Source of the DNA: a virus
Virus record (IMG/VR): IMGVR_UViG_3300045988_090117
Location: 4,812 to 68,811 of that record
DNA length: 64,000 nucleotides
Reading direction: 5' to 3' (one strand)
The notes beneath the pieces were generated by a model that worked only from the letters and a program-made list of their open reading frames with translations, ran no database searches and was not told the DNA's origin. A program made the position numbers and the translations under genes. The first letter of the stretch is position 1, and each line of letters begins with the position of its first letter. This document shows positions 1 to 48,264 of this stretch, one piece after another.

Positions 1-1727
1 AGTAGTATAAAGTGCGGTATATGGAATGCTCTGTTATCAGTAGCACTTGTTCTTGATAATTCATTTCCATCAATAGAGAAAACTAAGCTGCCATCTGTAT
101 TCCATTCCATAGCAAACTCATGCCAATCACCAGTTGGATAATTATCATACCATACACGTCCGCTTTCTTCTTTTTCGTTGAAGAACGTACCGCAAGTTAG
201 CTTGCCATTATAAAATTCCATTACGTCAAATTCACCACAATATGCCCACCATTCACCTAGTGTATCAGGGCTACCATTTTCTTTATATCCAAATTCAAAA
301 CTATCTCCTAAAGTCCAAAATGCTCCAAAAGAACCATTGTAATTACATGCTCTAACTCTAGCAACTATCTTACCATACATGAAAGCAAAATGACCTTTAG
401 AGATAATTGATGCAGATGTCCAAGAACCATCACTTGCTTTTTTACCTCTTAAAGCTAATATACCATTGTTAACTTCAGCATTTGTATTTGTATATTTTTG
501 AGTTTCATTATTTCTTACATAACCTAATTCATATGACCATTTATTTGAGTCTACACTACTACCTGAGAAATCATCGATTACATAAGCACCAGTAGAATCT
601 AATAATGAACTTGAACTTGAGCCATTTTCCTTCAATGTACCTGTAATAGCAGTACTTGCATCACCAGTAGCACATATTAATATTTTAGTTATATTTGCTG
701 GCACAGTAAACGTATATGATAACTCTTTATTTGACCAATCATCTGTGTTGCCTTCGACAAATGATACATAAGAATTTGATGAATTATAATAACAAACACA
801 TACATAATTAGCTTTATTAAGATTGATAGTATATGATTTACCAGCAGTTACACTTATATAATTTAATGTACTATAATATGCTCCATCTGTGGTATCTGCA
901 ATCACACCATCATTAAGTCTTTTATATTGAGTGAAAATCAATGCGTCTTTATTTACTAAAGTAACAGTAAATACATTACTTGTTTTAGTAGTACCTTTTG
1001 CAGTTGTCACTCTTATAGCCATTTGATAAGTTCCTGCATCACCCTTATTATCGTGTTTAAATCGATATCTTGTACCAGTGGATTCCACTTCGGTTGTTTT
1101 ATCGTAGAATGTATTTCCTCCATCCCATGAAACTTCGTGTTTTGTTACCGCTATATTTGTACTATATTCAATATAAAATTCAGTTTTTTCAGTTTGTGTT
1201 ATGTTTTCAATATTACTAATAGTTAGAGTTTCAGGTGTTACTGGAATTGCCTCAGTTGTAACAGTGATAGTAATGTTGCCAGTAACATTTGGTATATTAA
1301 TATTACTTCCTCTAATAACAGTATTACTTATATCAGTTCCACCCATTACAACACTAATATTTTTTACATTATAGCCTTCATTAGCGGCCACAATAGTTGA
1401 ATAACTAGAACCTTTTTTAATTGATTTAGTTGAGTTACTACTTGTTGCTTGATTTAAAGTGTATGTTATAGTGTAGTATGTATCGGTAGTTCCTCCTCCA
1501 CTCTCAGTATATACACATTTTAACTTACATTTATCATATGTACCATTATCCCAGTTACTAATATTAAAAACTGCACTAGACTTAGTAAAGGAAGTGGCAC
1601 TTATATAAGTACTACCTCCATCTTTACTAAGTAGAATGTCTGAGATATTAGTAACATCGGTTGTAAAATTCACGGTCAAAGTATCGCCGGATGTACTGGG
1701 ATTACTTGTTACAGTTATTGTTGCCAT
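1..1727 (-). CDS. Tail fibre / receptor-binding protein (3' end cut by window edge): Ig-like repeats plus a C-terminal GH16-type glucanase/lectin domain
   Basis: ATG at 1727 with GGAGGTG SD at 1733-1739. The frame stays open to nt 1, so it is absent from the ORF track. My translation of nt ~150-420 gives ..SKGHFAFMYGKIVARVRACNYNGSFGAFWTLG..YCGEFDVMEFYNGK.., which matches the GH16 ExDxxE catalytic pattern. Confidence 0.7.
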   Translation of the reverse strand, partial: MATITVTSNPSTSGDTLTVNFTTDVTNISDILLSKDGGSTYISATSFTKSSAVFNISNWDNGTYDKCKLKCVYTESGGGTTDTYYTITYTLNQATSSNSTKSIKKGSSYSTIVAANEGYNVKNISVVMGGTDISNTVIRGSNINIPNVTGNITITVTTEAIPVTPETLTISNIENITQTEKTEFYIEYSTNIAVTKHEVSWDGGNTFYDKTTEVESTGTRYRFKHDNKGDAGTYQMAIRVTTAKGTTKTSNVFTVTLVNKDALIFTQYKRLNDGVIADTTDGAYYSTLNYISVTAGKSYTINLNKANYVCVCYYNSSNSYVSFVEGNTDDWSNKELSYTFTVPANITKILICATGDASTAITGTLKENGSSSSSLLDSTGAYVIDDFSGSSVDSNKWSYELGYVRNNETQKYTNTNAEVNNGILALRGKKASDGSWTSASIISKGHFAFMYGKIVARVRACNYNGSFGAFWTLGDSFEFGYKENGSPDTLGEWWAYCGEFDVMEFYNGKLTCGTFFNEKEESGRVWYDNYPTGDWHEFAMEWNTDGSLVFSIDGNELSRTSATDNRAFHIPHFIL

Positions 1728-1741
1728 ATAAACACCTCCAT

Positions 1742-4700
1742 TTATTCACAAGTTGTTACTATACACTCTTTACTAAGTATTATAGTATATCCATCTTTAT
1801 TTTGAATTGATTCCTTAACTTCGTTTAACCCATCTATTGTTGCATAGGTATCACTAACAGTCATTTTGAATCCGTCTAAGGATTGTTCTAATTTTGCCTG
1901 TTTACTAGTTACTACTTTTACTTGTTCTGCCACTTGTTCTAGTGTTGGTGTTGTATAAGTAGTTGATGTAGGATTTTGCCATACTAATTTATATCTTAGC
2001 CATAAGTATTTATTTTCTGTTACAGCAGGCATACTCTCAACCCAACTACCTCCAGTTTGTGTTGTGTTACTAGTAGATAAATACCATTGTGGAGTTGAGT
2101 TCGTTAATGATTGTCCCTTATCACCAGGTTTACCATTATCACCTTTAAACTTACTCCATATGTAGTCAGCCTTGTTGTTACTTTCAGTAGCAGTCGTTTT
2201 GTTAGGAGCAATACCAATATACATTGTGCTATCTTTTGGAGTATCGTATAAACCAGTTCCATCAGCATTATCACTATATTTTATCCATGTATAATGAGTG
2301 ACCCCATCTTCACCTTTGATACCTTGTACGCCTTGATCCCCTTTATCTCCTTTTATCAAACTCCATACGTAGTCGGAAGGTTTATCACTTTCAGTTTGTG
2401 TAGTTTTGTTATAAGCAAGTCCAATATAAGTTTTTCCTGTTGGGTCATTACTAATACCTTCACCAGTTACACTATCAGCATATTTTATCCAAGTATAGTA
2501 GGTCTTACCATCTTCACCTTTAATTCCTTGTTCACCTTTAAATTTGCTCCATGTGTAATCAGTCTTGTTGTTGCTCTCAGTAGGTGTTGTTTTATTAACA
2601 CCAATTCCGATATATTTTGTTGTATCTTTTGGAGTATCATATAATCCTGTACCATCGGCATTATCACTGTATTTAATCCAAGTATAGTAAGTAGTACCGT
2701 CAGCACCAGTATCACCTTTTATACCAGTATCACCTTTCTCACCTTTTATTAGACTCCATGTATAATCAGTTTTATTAGTGCTTTCATTTTGTGTTTCTTT
2801 GTTATAGGCAAGACCAATATAAGGTTTACCAGTTGGATCATCGCTAATACCAGTTCCGTCAATACTATCTGCGTATTTTATCCATGTATAATATGTTTTA
2901 CCATCTTTTCCGGGAACACCTTGTAAACCTTGTTCACCTTTATCACCCTTAAACTTACTCCATATATAGTCAGCTTTGTTGGTGCTTTCAGTAGATGTTG
3001 GTTTATTTGGAGCGATCCCAATATACATTGTACTGGCTTTTGGTGTATCATATAGTCCTGTGCCATCTGAATTATCGCTGTATTTTATCCAAGTATAATA
3101 AGTTTTACCATCTTCACCTTTAACCCCCTGTACTCCGGTGTCTCCTTTTTCCCCTTTTATTAAGCTCCATGTGTAATCAGAAGGTGTATTACTTTCGGTA
3201 GATGTTTCTTTGTTGTAAGCAAAACCTATATAAATTTTACCAGTTGGATCATTACTAATTCCACTACCATCTATAGTGTCAGCATATCTAATCCATGTGT
3301 AATAAGTTTTACCGTCTGTTCCTGGTGTTCCTGGAACACCTTGTAGACCTTGGTCACCCTTATCACCTTTTGCTCCTTGCTCACCTTTTATCTTACTCCA
3401 TGTGTACGTAGTAACAGACTCACTATCTTTATTGTTTGTATCAGTATAAACTCCTATATAAGCTCCAGGAGTTTCACCTTTATTGACTGTAAAAGTTTTA
3501 CCTCCATCATCACTATATTTTATGTGTAGATAATAAGTTTTACCGTCTGTACCATTAGTTCCAGGTATACCTTGTTCACCTTGTTGACCTTCAAATCTAC
3601 TCCATGTATAAGCTTTATAATCAGTGCTATCAGTTGGATTATAATCAACATATGTACCTATATAAGTACTTGGAGTTTCACTCATTGGATTACCATTCGC
3701 ATTGGCACTATATTTTATATGAAAATATGTTGTCTTACCGTCTTTACCTGGTGTTCCTGGTGCTCCATCTTTACCAGGTGTACCATCTTTTCCTGGTGTA
3801 CCTGGTGTTCCAGGGATACCTTGCTCACCTTGCTCACCTTGTAAACCTTGTAGTCCTTGTGGACCCTGTTCACCTTGTGGACCTTGTGGCCCTTGAATAC
3901 CTTGCTCACCTTGTGGTCCTTGAATACCTTGTGAGCCTTGTTCACCTTTATCTCCTTTATCTCCCTTAGCACCTTGAATACATACTGGTGTTGAGTATGT
4001 TACACTACCATCACCTTGAGTGTATTTTATTCTTTGCCATATATATTTTCCACTTTCCCATTCAGGAGTAGTTTCTATCCAACTACCTCCAGTTTGAGTA
4101 GTATTACTTGTAGATACATAGTACTGAGATACAGTCTTTGTCAATGTTCCGTTAAAACTAGTTTCTAATTTTCCTATTGCAGTTGTATGTTTATTTACAG
4201 TATCTACAGTGCTATTATATTCATCTTTTAGTTGAGTAACAGTACCATCTGTTTTAGTGATAGTTGTATTACTAATTAATTGACTAATTTGACCTTGTGC
4301 TATACCTATATTAGTTGTATTGGTAGAGACCTGCTCAATAACACTACTTAAATCTCCGCCAATAGTTACATCTTTTATAGTTTCAACTGTCTTTTTAAGC
4401 TGATTGAATGATACATCTAATGTTTGATCAGTATCATTAAATTTTATTTGACTTGCTTTTATAGTATTAGTGTTATTATTGATACTACTGATAACACTAC
4501 TAATATCTAATTTACTACCACTTATATTGGCATTATCTGCTACTTTGCTATCAACTATTAATCCATCTTTTATCGCATCACTTGATTGAATACCATTCTG
4601 ATTAATAAGTTGACCTTTACCAGTTTCATCATATAATACAAAAGTAAAATTACCTTTAGCATCTTTTCCTATTTGAATACGTACATTACCTTTGCTATCT

Positions 4701-5671
4701 TTAAATTGTTGAAGATTACCTTGTAATAACATAGAGCCATCATCACTTTGAATATTTACATTGTTAGTATTAATTGTACCAGTATTGATTTTATTCGCAC
4801 TTACAGTATCTATCATGGCATCTTTTATAAGTGCGTCTGCTATAGTAACTTTACTAGCAGTAAGGTTTAATGATTGTATATTATCCATAGTAAGATGACC
4901 ACCAACTAATGTCTGTATTTCTGCCACTGTAGCTTTTAAGTTTGTTATAGTTGCATTAATGGCATCTAAATCACCGACTTTTAAGTTATCAATTTTAGCA
5001 TTTATAGCTGTAAAGTTATTTGTTGTAAGGTCTTTGAACTCACCATAATCTGCTTTTATCTTTTGTGCCTCTAACTCAACTACTTTTAATTTTGGAACGC
5101 TTTCTCCGTCTAATAATAGATTACCTTCATCATCTATATATAGCCATGGAGCCTTTCCATCTTTTGTAAGTGTTTCTAATAGTTCTTGTAAATTTTGTGG
5201 AATTTTAGTATCTGGGTCAGTTTCTAATACTTTAGTATCAGGGTCACCACATAAATCAGTTATTGTTTGTTTAGCAGTTTCCATATCATTAGTTGCGTCT
5301 TGTAGTTCTGCACTCATTGTTTCAGTCATTTCTTCTGTACTTAATGCCTGCATTAATACACCAACAATTCTATCCACAGCCTCGTTATAATCTTCTCCAG
5401 CCTGTTGAATATCTCCTATCTTAGCGTCCTCACATTCTTCATCTTCGATACCCTCAACTTGTACATCAATTCTATCTTGGTCATCTTCTACAGTGTCAGG
5501 TACTTCATAATACGTATCATCTTCTGTAGTATCGTCAGAAGCAGCTACAGTAGCTACTTCTGATTCCTCTGCAAATTCTTCCATATCCTCATCTAGTGTC
5601 GGCCATACAATCATCTCACCGTCATCATCATATATCGGTCTATCAACGTGTTCTCGTCCATCATCCATCAT
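1742..5671 (-). CDS. Collagen-like repeat tail fibre (1309 aa): acidic N-terminus, coiled-coil region, G-X-Y tract, eight tandem ~66-aa modules
   Basis: ORF track; AGGAGGG SD upstream of the ATG at 5671. It follows the tail lysin gene. Contains [13 protein letters not shown]...GKDGK collagen triplets and repeated [21 protein letters not shown] modules. Confidence 0.8.
2144..3730 (-). repeat. Eight tandem ~60-70-aa fibre modules separated by short G-X-Y linkers; the last six alternate between two subtypes
   Basis: Subtype A is [41 protein letters not shown]. Subtype B is TYYTWI.YAD...G.GIS.DPTGK.YIG.AYNK....ES....DY.WSLIKG. Both are read directly from the ORF translation. Confidence 0.85.
3731..3973 (-). 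repeat. Uninterrupted collagen-like G-X-Y tract (27 triplets)
   Basis: Translation reads [21 protein letters not shown] ... GTP GKD GKT. The triplet periodicity also generates the spurious + and - shadow ORFs at 3572-3972. Confidence 0.9.
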
Positions 5672-43984: not shown

Positions 43985-44015
43985 CCCTCCTTTATTTTTT
44001 CTTCCATACAATTAT

Positions 44016-44044
44016 AGTATAGAAAAAACCCGGTATTTACTAAC
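44016..44044 (-). promoter_or_regulatory. Phage promoter motif GTTAGT-17-TATACT
   Basis: Minus strand reads GTTAGTAAATACCGGGTTTTTTCTATACT. Confidence 0.55.
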
Positions 44045-44049
44045 CGGGT
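44028..44049 (-). terminator. Terminator hairpin with the -35 element of the next promoter in its loop
   Basis: Minus strand reads ACCCGGT-TAGTAAAT-ACCGGGT followed by TTTTTTC. Confidence 0.5.
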
Positions 44050-44060
44050 CTTCAATATTT

Positions 44061-44768
44061 TTATATTTCTATTCCTTCTCCATACCATCTATATGTACAT
44101 TCTATATCAGTCTTCATTGGTATTTCAAATTTTCCGTCTACTACGTGTACCATAATGTACTCTAATATATCTCTCACCTCTTTGGCATTCTCTTTTGGAC
44201 ATACTCCCAATACTTCATCATGCACCGGTATGATTAATTTATATCCCAACTCTTGTAGTCTTTTATTGTCATGAATTCTTATCATTGCTATCTTTGTCAT
44301 GTCGGCTGCACTACCTTGAATTATACTGTTAACACATTGTCTTTGAGCGTCGGCTATATATCCACCATTATCCACTAATTTATATCCCTCATCCTTGGCC
44401 ATTTGTTTTATTTTTTCTTTTGCCTCCTTACCAAAGGCTCTATTCATTAATTTAAGATATTTGAAGTAAACCTCATCGCTCACCTCTGTAGTGGACCCAC
44501 CAGTAAAATCTAATGGATTAAAGGTATCAGCTAAATTAGGGTTTTCCACTGTTATCTCTATTGGATCTAGTTGCATATTTGGTAATCTTCTTTTTCTACC
44601 CCATGCAGTCTCTACAAAACCATACTCTCTTGCATTCTCTTGAGCAAATTCTACAAACTCTTTTACTCTTGGAAATTGTTTATAAAAGTCATTTATAACC
44701 TGTTGTGCTTCCTCTTTACTGATATTCATCTGCTCGGCTATACTTGTTACACCTCTACCATACATAAT
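44061..44768 (-). CDS. polA: Family A DNA polymerase, exon 3
   Basis: Begins IMYGRGVTSIAEQ (completing motif B, K..LLGIMYG) and contains VHDEV (motif C). The junction follows the intron-terminal G at 44769. Confidence 0.8.
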   Translation of the reverse strand: MMYGRGVTSIAEQMNISKEEAQQVINDFYKQFPRVKEFVEFAQENAREYGFVETAWGRKRRLPNMQLDPIEITVENPNLADTFNPLDFTGGSTTEVSDEVYFKYLKLMNRAFGKEAKEKIKQMAKDEGYKLVDNGGYIADAQRQCVNSIIQGSAADMTKIAMIRIHDNKRLQELGYKLIIPVHDEVLGVCPKENAKEVRDILEYIMVHVVDGKFEIPMKTDIECTYRWYGEGIEI

Positions 44769-45823
44769 CAGTTTATACCGCCCCTTTCGGGGTACTTTAA
44801 CACTTGTTATGCCAAGTCGGCTTAGACTATATCATCCCTCTTACGAGGGGAGCGCTTCGTATATCGTACCAATAGATACACTACTCCATAAAGGATAGTC
44901 GTTACACTTCTTCCCAATGGTAGCCGTATGCTCTTATATTTCTTTTCATACTCTCTTTTATTTGAGTATTACAACTTTGTGACGTTTTAGTTTTACATAA
45001 ACCTTGTGCAACTAACCATTTCCATGCCTCAGTATAACTACTAAATGTTTTATCAAGTTCTATAAGTTTTACCGGTTTACGACATTTACTTATTCTACCA
45101 GTATTACATTTACTTATAATATCTTTTGTTTCTTGTGTATGGTGTTTACCATAAAATGCATTATCTTTACCAGTATATTTACCTTGTCTAGCTTTACTTA
45201 GCGCTAATTTATGTTCCGGTGATTTTGCTACTCCTTTTAACTTAGATGCTCTTTGTTGTATGAAAAGTTGTCTATCAGTATCAGATAATGTACTCCAAAA
45301 TTGTCTACTGGCTTGAGACATTTTTAGTTTATCTTCATCCGTATGTTTATAACCAGGTACGCCAGCTCCACCTGGAGTCATATTATAACCATCTTTATAA
45401 CTATTAAATATTGATATATAATATACTTCTCTCTCATTTAATTTGTCTATTGAGCATTCCTCTAATAAATACATATGAAATTTATCAACACCATATTTAA
45501 GTAGTGCATTATGAAAATGTGTACCGTTATTTATATCAGAACTAGTATGTTCATACCATCTTTGTTTTAATGATGTACTTGTTTGTCCTACATATACTTT
45601 ATGATTAATATCGTCAATTACAATATAAATATATCCCATAATCTCACCCCCTTCACGGCTATCATTGTTGGTTAGCACGGTCTAACCATATGAGATATAA
45701 AATTATATTGGTTTATATATAATATTATAGCACACTTAGGCTTTAACCGTTAGCATAAAATAAAAAATTTTATACACCCCTGGTAGGGTTCACTTTCTTT
45801 TATTTGGGCTATACTTGTGGTTT
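44769..45823 (-). mobile_element. Group I intron 2 of polA (1055 nt) carrying a GIY-YIG endonuclease ORF
   Basis: The upstream exon ends in U (GGT at 45826-45824) and the intron ends in G (44769). GC-rich structured ends include a CCCCGAAAGGGG tetraloop hairpin and GATATAGTCTAAGCC, which resembles the group I S element. Confidence 0.75.
44902..45639 (-). CDS. GIY-YIG homing endonuclease (intron-encoded)
   Basis: MGYIYIVIDDINHKVYVGQT...N..Y gives a GIY-YIG core. NUMOD-like repeats (HK.ALSKA.QGK) follow. SD GAAGGGGGTGAG upstream. Confidence 0.8.
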   Translation of the reverse strand: MGYIYIVIDDINHKVYVGQTSTSLKQRWYEHTSSDINNGTHFHNALLKYGVDKFHMYLLEECSIDKLNEREVYYISIFNSYKDGYNMTPGGAGVPGYKHTDEDKLKMSQASRQFWSTLSDTDRQLFIQQRASKLKGVAKSPEHKLALSKARQGKYTGKDNAFYGKHHTQETKDIISKCNTGRISKCRKPVKLIELDKTFSSYTEAWKWLVAQGLCKTKTSQSCNTQIKESMKRNIRAYGYHWEEV

Positions 45824-46153
45824 ACCCAATAATATAGGCTTAACGGAGCTTCTACGTTGTTTTCCTTCTGGGTTAACTGTACCGTCAGGTCTAAACTCCT
45901 TACATTCTTCATATGGTTGATTGTACAATTTACTTGCTATCGTGGCATATAGGTCCTTTCCATCTAAATACGCTTGTATCATATGTTTATCGCCACTCAT
46001 ATGTGCTAAACATCTCGGCTCCTGCTGCGAAAAATCTCCACCTATTATTACATTGCCTTCTCCTGCAATAAACATTTGTCTTATATCATGTCCAGCATCT
46101 ATTACAGTCCCATCACTTAATTTCTTTGTTTTACTGGGTATATTTTGTAAATT
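45824..46153 (-). CDS. polA: Family A DNA polymerase, exon 2
   Basis: NLQNIPSK...GGDFSQQEPRCLAH (motif A, DYSQIELR-like) ...QRRSSVKPILLG. 330 nt, in frame with exons 1 and 3. Confidence 0.8.
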
Positions 46154-46882
46154 CACATTGTTAGCGTAGAGGCTCTTTATCCTCTACCTCTTATGGTTCG
46201 TATTCCCATAAGGTCAGACTATATCTCAAACTTATAAAAAGCGACCTGTCTCTTTATCTCGACGATTATTTAAATCGGTACTATGATATTTTTCTTGATG
46301 TTCTGCACGTGTAGTCAAAACTAAATTTTCTATTCGATTATCCAACTTATTCCCATTCTTATGGTGAACTATCTCATCCGATGTTAACTTACGTCCTAAA
46401 TAATCTTCCATAACTTTACGATGTACAAAATATCTATTATTCAACTCTGAAACAACTAAATAACCATCGTATAAATAAACACGTGGTTTTCGTCCTTCTC
46501 CACGTCTTTTAAGTTGTAATCGACTAGCTTTATGCAGAATACTACCCTCACTGCGATTTAAATATTCACTACATTGTTTAAGTCCTAATTTCTCATAATT
46601 TTTAACAAGCCATTCTAATTCCGTTTTTGTCCATTGTTTTCTCATATACATTACCTCCTCCATTTACATAATAGTAACATATATGGAATATTTTGTAAAC
46701 ACTTTTTATAAGTCCAGGGGCGCTCGTGGATGGGTTATTGGTGTGCTCCTCACCATCTAGTCGTTAGACTTTCACGGTACATTTTTACACTTCCCGTGCT
46801 TAGTACGGTATTAGCATCGCAGCCTTCACCGTTTCACCCCTGTATGCATCTATCATATCACTATGATAGCGCCCAATTATTT
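46154..46882 (-). mobile_element. Group I intron 1 of polA (729 nt) carrying an HNH endonuclease ORF
   Basis: Exon 1 ends ..AAT CCT (U at 46883) and the intron ends GTG (G at 46154). A GC-rich core at 46664-46882 and GATATAGTCTGACC near the 3' end resemble the group I S element. Confidence 0.75.
46232..46663 (-). CDS. HNH homing endonuclease (intron-encoded)
   Basis: [34 protein letters not shown]. The probable start MRKQW at 46645 follows the SD GGAGGAGG. Confidence 0.8.
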
Positions 46883-48199
46883 AGGATTACTACTACTAAA
46901 ACGTCCTGTCTTTGCGCCATACTGGTTGAAGTTCGCGTGTAACTTACCAGTTCTTTTGCTTATATGGTCAGGAATGGCATCAATATAAGTACTTAATAGT
47001 TTACTCATACCTCTATACTCTAATATACTATTCACTAATGGGTGGTTTAATTGTTTCAGTTGTTCTTCTCCCACGCTACGTTGACCTTTTGGTGGCTCTA
47101 ATTTTAAGACATCATAGAATAATATTACTAACTGTTGATTACTTCCTATATTAATTTTCACATCTCCAAATTCACTTATTTTGCCATACTTGTCTGGATG
47201 CTTAACTCGTAGGTCATTAAATGCGCCCTGCTTATCCAGCTTCTCTACTTCGGTATTAAATTCATTAAGAGCATTATCCATATACGTAGTATATCGTTGT
47301 TTTAACTCTTGAGCTAAGTTTGTATCTATATCTACTCCTTGTGCCTCCATATCGAATACTACTTCTATTAATGGCATTTCTATATTCCTGAATACATCTG
47401 CCACCCTTTCAAGTCCTTTTTTATAACAGTATTTTCCATCTCTGTCCAAATACTCACGTTGAAATTCATATAATTCAAAAGTCATTATAGGGTCAAAGGC
47501 TGCGTACATATAGCCAACATCTGGAGGTATTTTATTGAACTCAATGCCATTAAATAATTCACCAAATTTACCTACCTCAGCACTTTCACCAGTACAATAC
47601 TTTTGCCATAATACTTTTAAGCCATGTGGTTCATTTTCATTAAGTAAATACCCTCCAATTAATGTGTCCCAGTATGGTACTATTTTTACTCCTACCATCC
47701 AATATAATATATGCATATCGAACTTAGCGTTATGTAGCACAAATCTAATATTATTATCTGACCAAGATTGTATTAATTTCCTAACTACTTCAATAGATAC
47801 ATTACTTTGTAATTCCGTATTTGTCATATAACTTATATGTCCTACTGGAATATAAATACCTTTTTCATATGGTGTATAAAGACATATACCAGCTACTTTT
47901 CCGTCTATTCTATCAAGTCCGTTTGTCTCAGTATCTAGTGCTACTATGCCATTGGCTACTACTTTTTTATCGAACTGTTTTAACCTATCTTCACTAGTTA
48001 CTAATTCCATTCTATCTAGTCTATCAGCAAATATTTTAGTAGACATCATCTTTGCATATTCTACTTTATCCTTCATTGTCTTAGGTACTATTGATGTTAC
48101 TGGCGCTCTTTTATTTTTCTTTTTACTCAACACTTCTAACGCTTTTTTATTCGCCTCTTTGTTATTACAACGACTAAATGTATCTTTAAACAAACTCAT
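46883..48199 (-). CDS. polA: Family A DNA polymerase, exon 1 (3'-5' exonuclease domain plus N-terminal polymerase domain)
   Basis: Exo motifs VALDTETNGLD and LHNAKFDMHIL. Ends ..GAKTGRFSSSNP, which continues as NLQNIP in exon 2. Confidence 0.85.
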
Positions 48200-48211
48200 T
48201 ATATCCCTCCT

Positions 48212-48244
48212 ATAAAAAATACCAGGTAATTACTACCTGGTATT
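48212..48244 (-). terminator. Hairpin plus T-tract between the SSB-like gene and polA (leaky terminator/attenuator)
   Basis: Minus strand reads AATACCAGGTA-GTAAT-TACCTGGTATT followed by TTTTTAT, then the polA SD AGGAGGGAT. Confidence 0.5.
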
Positions 48245-48264
48245 CACTTGTTATTTATTTGTTA

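Follow-up and report, generated by a model that had tools for sequence, protein, structure and literature searches.

A predicted td-like group I intron with a GIY-YIG endonuclease gene at motif B of an uncultured phage DNA polymerase gene

What divides the gene for DNA polymerase in a 64,000-nt stretch of viral DNA (IMG/VR record IMGVR_UViG_3300045988_090117, positions 4,812 to 68,811; this whole stretch is called the window), and could one polymerase still be made from its parts? The gene is polA, encoding the family A DNA polymerase of an uncultured low-GC phage (window G+C of 32%). It lies on the minus strand, where the open reading frame (ORF) finder broke it into three pieces with two further ORFs between them, one of the HNH_3 family (46648..46232) and one with GIY-YIG and NUMOD3 domains (45639..44902). 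The first-pass annotation had read the second gap as a second group I intron (intron 2) with a GIY-YIG endonuclease, splitting motif B at LLG|IMYG, a reading now backed by intron-less alleles, covariation, two covariance models, the ORF family and ORF-less relatives. From the sequence we predict, as very probable, that intron 2 belongs to subgroup IA2 of the group I introns, is able to splice and encodes a homing endonuclease resembling I-TevI. The parts of the gene are as follows.

48199..46877, minus strand: first piece, 3'-5' exonuclease and beginning of DNA_pol_A (Pfam)
46156..45809, minus strand: second piece, DNA_pol_A profile positions 127-203 (Pfam)
44768..44061, minus strand: third piece, final part of DNA_pol_A (Pfam)
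45824..46153, minus strand: polA exon 2, 330 nt, NLQNIP...KPILLG, with the last six bases UUGGGU (45829..45824) as the exon strand of P1
44769..45823, minus strand: predicted group I (IA2, td-like) intron 2, 1,055 nt, from A45823 to the terminal G44769 (omega-G)
44061..44768, minus strand: polA exon 3, 708 nt with the stop codon counted, IMYGRG...GEGIEI-stop

Joining 48199..46883, 46153..45824 and 44768..44061 yields a 784-aa polymerase, whose alignment with the Klenow fragment crosses both junctions without a gap. The junction of intron 1 (window 46882..46154) falls at SSSNP|NLQNIP, after P674 in E. coli numbering, and that of intron 2 at KPILLG|IMYG, opposite KAINFG|LIYG, which corresponds to E. 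coli G763|L764 in motif B (the O-helix); here qrrssvkpillgimygrg is aligned with EQRR-SAKAINFGLIYGMS of Klenow. The sequence agrees with what had been annotated on either side of intron 2, in that exon 2 ends in ..RRSSVKPILLG, with the T of GGT at 45824 and a read-through into KPQV-stop, and exon 3 starts at 44768, next to G44769, with ATT ATG TAT GGT and runs in frame for 708 nt. The closest deposited polymerases, those of Dp-1, MS1 and phiCTP1, share 46% identity and are all uninterrupted, and no match was returned when the polA gene was compared with deposited phages by megablast.

The limits of intron 2 were set by comparison with alleles that have no insert. When IMG/VR was scanned with the spliced protein, an uninterrupted 2,352-nt polA was found in 19 viral contigs, with proteins 91-96% identical to that of the window (64% for two of them). 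DNA alignment of the window polA with the intron-less alleles gave three blocks (48260..46881, 46153..45825 and 44768..44007), with break points against all 19 at 45824/45823 and 44769/44768, and intron 2 is therefore 45823..44769, 1,055 nt. All relatives encode the identical KPILLGIMYGRG across the junction. At the insertion site, one intron-less allele (L002; L numbers are our handles for loci) reads ...CCTATATTACTAGGA|ATTATGTATGG, and the predicted ligated junction of the window is ...TTATTGGGT|ATTATGTATGG. Before ATT, 18 of the 19 intron-less alleles have TTAGGA or TTAGGG and the last, L014, has TTGGGA; GGGT stands at the junction in 12 of 12 distinct intron-bearing alleles (TTGGGT, or CTGGGT in L171 and L075), so that all the intron-bearing alleles, and none of the intron-less ones, have T (U in the RNA) at position -1. 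These exon differences, at -1 and -4, are synonymous and are the very bases needed for P1, which, judging by base pairing, the TTAGGA and TTAGGG of the intron-less alleles could not form.

In group I chemistry the last exon base is a U in a U-G wobble pair and the last intron base is a G. This matters here as the DNA comparison alone is ambiguous: a junction one base to the left (TTGGG|...CT|G) also encodes Gly-Ile, and the junction 45824|45823 with 44769|44768 was chosen because group I rules want a U before the 5' splice site and a G at the end of the intron. Were the same intron spliced one base to the left, exon 2 would end at G45825, the intron would run from 45824 to 44770 and the glycine codon would be GGG instead of GGU. 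Such splicing is indistinguishable by comparison with the intron-less alleles, two of which (L017 and L018) do have GGG at that codon, but we regard it as extremely improbable, since the required U and G are satisfied only at 45824|45823 and 44769|44768 and T at -1 is confined to intron-bearing alleles.

Read as RNA, intron 2 has a td-like subgroup IA2 anatomy from P1 to P9, with P7.1 and P7.2 and with the ORF looped out of P6. The predicted elements are listed with the bases found in related introns (R1 and R2 are covariance models introduced below).

45804..45809, minus strand: internal guide sequence GCCCAA, read from the sequence, pairs with exon UUGGGU (P1)
45672..45792, minus strand: 5' ribozyme domain, matched by model R2, with compensatory changes in the hairpin, P5 and P5a
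45788..45778, minus strand: P2, CCCU/AGGG (CGCU/AGCG in L171)
45777..45774, 45773..45755 and 45754..45753, minus strand: P3 5' strand, consisting of GUGU, a hairpin and GC
45773..45755, minus strand: hairpin in P3, AUAAAAU/AUUUUAU (GCGGAA/UUCCGU in L165, GUAGA/UCUAU in L166, GGGAU/AUCCC in L175)
45750..45746 with 45681..45677, minus strand: P4, ACGGU with ACCGU (ACGAU/AUCGU in L171)
45741..45685, minus strand: P5 with AU-rich P5a/b extension, P5 being GCC/GGU (UUC/GAA in L166)
45657..45667, minus strand: P6 5' strand CAAUGAUAGCC, pairs with 44925..44915, closing the ORF-holding loop
45651..45644, minus strand: Shine-Dalgarno sequence GGGGGUGA, 4 nt before the ORF ATG
44902..45639, minus strand: GIY-YIG/NUMOD3 homing endonuclease ORF, 245 aa, 738 nt, ATG at 45639
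44915..44925, minus strand: P6 3' strand GGCUACCAUUG, within the last ORF codons (..GYHWEEV-stop)
44818..44910, minus strand: catalytic core, 3' domain, with J6/7, P7, P7.1, P7.2, P3 3' strand and P8, matched by model R1
44900..44895 with 44830..44825, minus strand: P7, GACUAU with AUAGUC, invariant in close orthologues
44894..44886, minus strand: P7.1, 2 bp here (L166 has 3 bp and a GCGA loop)
44881..44859, minus strand: P7.2, GUGUAUC/GAUAUAC, 7 bp (CCUCGCC/GGCGGGG in L166)
44855..44850, minus strand: P3 3' strand GCGCUC (GUGCAC in L171, GUGCGC in L075, GCGCAAC in L121)
44849..44836, minus strand: P8, CCCUC-GUAA-GAGGG (ACC/GGU in L166), compensated
44769..44821, minus strand: P9 domain, GCCG 44821..44818 with CGGU 44780..44777, enclosing P9a and P9.1
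44816..44803, minus strand: P9a, compensatory changes
44792..44781, minus strand: P9.1, CCCC-GAAA-GGGG, compensatory changes
After the P9 domain pairing, minus strand: intron 3' end AUAAACUG, ending in omega-G at 44769

At the two splice sites the expected bases are in place. P1 has 6 bp, with U45824 opposite G45809 as a U-G wobble at the splice site, and is invariant in eight orthologous introns; the terminal G44769 (omega-G) just before exon 3 recurs in all orthologues. The S-like block GAUAUAGUCUAAGCC that had been pointed out in the 3' part was located at about 44832..44818, and the likeness to the S element holds: GAUAUAGUC comprises J8/7 and the 3' strand of P7, a classical S element. 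The GAAA-tetraloop hairpin CCCCGAAAGGGG of the same annotation, found at 44792..44781, is refined here to P9.1. P6 pairs at 10 of its 11 positions in the window; in L166 an A-U pair has become a G-U wobble and the A/C mismatch a G-C pair, in L165 one pair is broken, and in L171 the helix is replaced by an unrelated 15-bp one, with a short hairpin at this place in the ORF-less introns of L119 and L075. The stop codon UAA of the ORF (44904..44902) falls within J6/7, and its last codons (GYHWEEV-stop) double as the P6 3' strand. P5a is a variable stem that is compensated among the orthologous introns, and six of the seven P7.2 pairs are compensated in L166. In P3, four core pairs are always possible and one U/U mismatch is present in the window; no variation in its 5' strand (GUGU, hairpin, GC) is seen across all the copies and 25 unrelated introns (alignment A4).

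Two other pairings were considered and set aside. GUGUAUC/GAUAUAC was rejected as P3, being P7.2 on comparison with Rfam-aligned introns, and P10 is a weak pairing at best with a 2-nt offset (GUAUA with exon-3 bases 3-7) and is not relied on. As a separate observation, the hairpin inside the P3 5' strand marks an IA2 subclass (GGUGU-hairpin-GCUAACGG) comprising the window (45773..45755) and the 25 unrelated introns, and this hairpin covaries strongly, with 97% of cells paired in alignment A4. Over its 3' 70 nt the intron is about 80% identical to stretches in the records of SPO1-like Bacillus and Twort-like Staphylococcus phages, and part of these matches fall under terminase large-subunit annotations.

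Selection on the predicted helices was assessed in an alignment of eight distinct close intron copies. Across these copies 98.3% of cells pair, and 18 pairs are changed on both sides, compared with 4.2 +/- 1.7 in shuffles (none of 500 reaches 18) and 1-6 in slid controls; P2, P4 and P6 are rebuilt in L171. Two covariance models were then built from introns outside this family. R1, which covers J6/7, P7, P7.1, P7.2 and P7', came from 76 unrelated IA2 cores, five of which lie within introns passing Rfam RF00028 (L059, L072, L076, L077 and L121); P7.2 across this class pairs in 94.7% of cells with abundant compensation. R2, which covers P2, the hairpin and P4, came from 25 unrelated introns (98.3% of cells paired) that have in common the architecture GUGAAC-P2-GGUGU-hairpin-GCUAACGG...CCGUGCYAA. 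In the 64-kb window R1 gives a single significant match, at 44910..44818 on the minus strand (59.7 bits, E 4.6e-10; next 11.9 bits), and R2 likewise a single one, at 45792..45672 (51.6 bits, E 9.3e-12), with the 5' part of intron 1 (46889..46800) as runner-up at 14.7 bits and E 0.07. Both ribozyme halves are thus recognised, at the right place and on the right strand, by models built without this intron family. The two matches fit the group I pattern of a P3-P7-P8 core, with R/S elements forming the guanosine-binding P7, and a P4-P5-P6 domain with an A-rich J4/5.

Sequence searches place intron 2 in a wider class. The signature TAACGACTATCC-N50-80-GATATAGTCT is present in at least 119 viral contigs, and when 20 signature loci were scanned with Rfam, L059, L072, L076 and L077 matched RF00028 (gathering score 50 bits) in five places with 59.6-75.5 bits, in alignments that show the sequence blocks of the window. 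An exact-pattern scan for the core (TAACGACTATCC..GAAGCGCTC..ATGATATAGTC) gave no matches in the Joint Genome Institute (JGI) metagenomes or in IMG/VR, and BLAST of the non-coding parts of the intron against the pattern-matched loci found nothing beyond core-level similarity. The orthologous introns were reached solely via protein homologues of the endonuclease, which are 82-92% (P0001-P0011), 63% (P0012) and 42% (P0013) identical to that of the window. All 14 contexts fetched in this way (L162-L175) are polA genes interrupted at the same LLG|IMYG position, and intron 1 is absent from every intron-2-bearing relative in which the upstream polA is covered.

Introns without an ORF occur at or near this place as well. 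L119 (IMGVR_UViG_3300035498_000553) has a 271-nt ORF-less intron of the same architecture exactly at KSILLG|IMYGRG, L075 has one at the identical site (KPIVLG|VMYGRG), and in L121 an ORF-less intron lies about 8 nt upstream in motif B and passes Rfam with 52.7 bits. Together these three introns point to motif B as a region in which introns recur among uncultured phages. The L119 locus is itself very intron-dense: within 10 kb R1 finds 10 group I catalytic cores, RF00028 passes three of these at 88-92 bits, and polA is interrupted repeatedly.

The ORF in the P6 loop is predicted to encode the homing enzyme. Pfam assigns it to GIY-YIG (PF01541; 9.6e-11) and NUMOD3 (1.3e-10), the latter as a C-terminal module for DNA binding, and its score of 111.2 bits with TIGR01453 ('group I intron endonuclease') exceeds the cut-off, 56.05. 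It also aligns to the I-TevI catalytic domain (1LN0/1MK0), a weak match (E 1e-4) that covers the catalytic domain only. Nine homologues, the most distant of them 42% identical, all keep the catalytic residues Y5, Y16, R27, H31, E71 and N86, and 14 of 14 copies (L162-L175) have an intact ORF, of 244-266 codons (244-245 residues in the close homologues). None of the remoter GIY-YIG relatives (28-44% identity; L023-L042 and MT838406) adjoins polA, and deposited phage records held no relative of the endonuclease above 40% identity.

T4 intron ORFs have promoters of their own, and an internal promoter for this endonuclease ORF may exist. The extended -10 element proposed for that role, TGCTATAAT at 45724..45732 on the minus strand, is unsupported, being at chance frequency (three copies in the window against 1.85 expected), not called in a -35/-10 scan and placed in an optional part of the intron, the P5a/b extension. 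The scan counted 19 sites in the region against 20.6 expected in shuffles; the six close copies with the extension retain TG(C/T)TATAAT, and L165, L166 and L175 are without the whole extension.

How the element would work can be set out from these parts. In the pre-mRNA the guide GCCCAA would pair with exon UUGGGU to form P1, with the U-G wobble at the splice site, and the core (P3-P8, P4-P6, P7 with P7.1 and P7.2, and P9) would fold around it. A free guanosine bound in P7 would attack after U45824, and the freed exon end would attack after G44769, joining GGU to AUU and restoring K-P-I-L-L-G-I-M-Y-G in the 784-aa polymerase. From the P6-loop gene, with its own ribosome-binding site, an I-TevI-like enzyme would be made that, by analogy with I-TevI, may bind the continuous stretch that encodes motif B in intron-less relatives and cut nearby; during co-infection, repair from an intron-bearing genome would then copy the intron and a few flanking exon bases (homing). 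Splicing, endonuclease activity, cut site and current mobility are inferred here.

That the intron has moved is indicated by its patchy distribution, and its higher conservation than that of the exons is consistent with transfer. The intron of the window shares about 90% identity with its counterparts in phages whose flanking exons match those of the window at 74-88%; the closest relatives of the window (about 92% exon identity) are without it, and the same site is occupied in the distant polymerases of L171, L119 and L075, a pattern such as homing would be expected to leave. As the intron-less alleles could not form P1, the donor TTGGGT would have to travel with the intron, and would do so in any case if the enzyme resembled I-TevI in cutting upstream of the insertion site. 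The window exon segments beside intron 2 are no nearer to intron-bearing than to intron-less phages. As an observation of its own, exon 2 (46153..45824) matches the nearest intron-less relatives at about 85%, compared with about 92% where exon 1 ends and where exon 3 begins, and for its first half L017 and L019 are closest (92-93%); polA looks mosaic, possibly through past recombination around the two introns.

A bolder reading is that the GIY-YIG enzyme has an uncharacterised homing specificity for the motif B coding sequence and is actively used among co-circulating uncultured phages, some of them from the gut, as an intron spreader and an interference weapon, cutting upstream so that the P1-compatible bases are always co-converted. 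We put this forward only tentatively, and think it rather doubtful as a whole. An interference weapon of this kind has been shown for an intron endonuclease of PhiPA3 (PMC11620839). If the same were true here, the enzyme would cut the polA of intron-less relatives at co-infection, and 19 such relatives are found in public viromes.

Several results weigh against the identification of intron 2 as a working group I intron. The Rfam group I model matches nothing in the whole window, in 2.4 kb around the introns (E up to 10) or in the 3' part alone, and the scans of the window and introns returned only chance-level small RNA (sRNA) matches. Even the ORF-less L119 intron (4481..4731), matched over the full length of RF00028, reaches 42.3 bits (E 1e-9), short of the threshold of 50. 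The least secure helix is P3, split by a hairpin, with one U/U mismatch and mostly invariant bases; P1, P3, P4, the P6 3' strand and P7 are invariant in the close family and draw their support from one distant orthologue and the class-wide models. The ends of variable hairpins were trimmed to obtain an ungapped alignment for the pair count, which favours structure. No clear co-conversion tract is seen beyond the last four exon bases, where the fixed exon differences are just -1 and -4. As to Rfam, the miss on the window is attributed to the 738-nt ORF that splits the core, and the scores of the L119 and L121 introns suggest that the model is only marginally sensitive to this subclass; the alignment of L119 has low posterior probability at the extra P3 hairpin region, which may be the reason for the sub-threshold scores. 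Failure to detect a group I fold had been named beforehand as grounds for giving up the intron, and on this point the outcome is divided, as the Rfam model finds none and the fold is found by covariation, by R1 and R2 and in the ORF-less relatives.

The same locus could be read as a split polymerase, with a free-standing endonuclease gene among remnants of RNA structure and two polypeptides (..LLGKPQV-stop, and exon 3 started from the ATG of IMYG) that assemble without splicing. The second codon of exon 3 is indeed an in-frame ATG, from which the ORF finder lists 44765..44061 as ATG-initiated, and a G-rich GGGGCGG lies 12 nt upstream of it. But this Met is a conserved motif residue in intron-less relatives also, the G-rich bases belong to P9.1 and P9, as their 3' strands, and L075 and L119 do not keep them as a ribosome-binding site, the break would come within the O-helix (motif B) of the fingers domain, and clear structural selection, which an unspliced spacer would not need, acts on the flanking non-coding RNA. 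We hold this arrangement to be very unlikely. A little less improbable, though still a slim prospect, is a decayed intron that splices poorly or needs a host or phage factor, with an endonuclease that is perhaps inactive and vertical inheritance only. The P3 mismatch, a P7.1 of only 2 bp in the window and the unseen co-conversion tract would fit such decay. It is countered by a core that is nearly invariant across phages with exons differing by 12-26%, by the intact ORF with all catalytic residues kept in 14 of 14 copies and by the occupation of the same site in the distant polymerases named above; moreover, polA is essential for such phages, and here it carries two inserts and has no second copy found in the window. 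Two further kinds of insert were rejected, an intein by the in-frame stops right after the junction and by a lack of intein motifs, and a group II intron by the lack of a reverse transcriptase ORF and of any Rfam match. A splicing-competent IA2 intron remains by far the best account of the insert.

The first-pass annotation was also right that one polA holds two introns with endonucleases of different families, as Pfam assigns the intron 1 ORF to HNH_3 and the intron 2 ORF to GIY-YIG/NUMOD3. The HNH_3 ORF lies between an R-like element GUCUAACGACUAGAU (upstream) and an S-like element GAGAUAUAGUCUG (downstream), and is therefore held in another loop than the intron 2 ORF. Other inserts were noticed in this phage group. 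L018, a close relative without introns 1 and 2, has a polA insert of about 760 nt (2495..3255, equivalent to window ~46030) between DFS and QQEPR in motif A (E. coli S707|Q708); it contains a 170-aa ORF (HHIDADRLNN...) that is HNH-like by eye, and gave no Rfam and no R1 matches. L001 (MT839691.1, a faecal phage; L022 was noted along with it) has an ORF-less group I intron at 1060..1293 (RF00028, 76.5 bits) after SSSNPNL, which is the phiL7-type site 676, and a second polA insert of about 1.3 kb (~1600..2700) near motif A (DFS|QQEPR), an intron or intein with ORFs that are LAGLIDADG-like by eye. A group I core in L017 (259..357; R1 41.3 bits, E 3e-6) lies about 3.6 kb upstream of its intron-less polA, and another gene of this phage group therefore also hosts an intron. 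Just downstream of polA, L165 (5478..5975) and L166 (5474..6735) encode QueT-, QueF- and QueC-like proteins, which we take to recall the queuosine/7-deazaguanine genes of Dp-1-like phages.

There are practical consequences for annotation. Gene callers split this polA into three fragments and two 'hypothetical' ORFs, and in the related contigs fetched polA is called as separate fragments on both sides of the endonuclease gene. As Rfam misses the intron, such genes are likely mis-annotated in gut phage genomes. A GIY-YIG enzyme recognising a near-universal polymerase motif could, in addition, be a useful specificity for engineered nucleases of the I-TevI type.

Among known systems, T4 td with I-TevI is alike in having P7.1 and P7.2 between P7 and P3' and the ORF in the P6 loop, and in an N-terminal GIY-YIG domain, with which the window protein aligns at the I-TevI catalytic domain, plus NUMOD3 repeats. 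The core blocks UAACGACUAUCC...GGAGUA...GAUAUAGUCU and ACCGUGCUAA of td are presumably shared with intron 2, and we believe that the td 5' exon ends in UUGGGU, like exon 2. The two differ in that the host gene of the window is polA, not thymidylate synthase, that the P3 5' strand of intron 2 is interrupted by an extra hairpin, and that the protein match is weak (E 1e-4).

Since SPO1, phage polA has been a known host gene of group I introns. Phage polA introns of subgroup IA2 with endonucleases have been described in SPO1 (I-HmuI), SP82 (I-HmuII), Bastille (I-BasI), Pf-WMP3 (I-PfoP3I), phiL7 and PhiI/W31 (I-TslI), at site 674 (SPO1, SP82, Bastille, Pf-WMP3), 676 (phiL7) or 881 (PhiI, W31), and the endonucleases named for them are all HNH nickases (PMC3428280). 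Like these, intron 2 is of subgroup IA2, sits in a highly conserved part of the essential polA and encodes an endonuclease; unlike these, it is at G763|L764 and its enzyme is GIY-YIG rather than HNH. Intron 1 occupies the same site as the introns of SPO1 and Bastille, after P674. In a survey of the Bastillevirinae, the nucleases of polymerase introns were HNH, LAGLIDADG or unclassified, GIY-YIG enzymes were found in ribonucleotide reductase and thymidylate synthase introns and not in polymerase introns, and the DNA polymerase of phiNIT1 had two introns with different nucleases (PMC11878797). phiNIT1 and the window are alike in having one polymerase gene with two introns and endonucleases of different families, but the window belongs to another lineage, with Dp-1 and phiCTP1 (46% identity) as nearest cultured relatives, its sites are others, and its pairing is HNH with GIY-YIG. 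Relative to PMC3428280 and PMC11878797, the site G763|L764 with a GIY-YIG enzyme is apparently a new combination of a thoroughly known kind of selfish element: it leaves the understanding of how such elements work unchanged, adds GIY-YIG to the endonucleases of polymerase introns, and brings the insertion sites of polA in the cited literature to a fourth.

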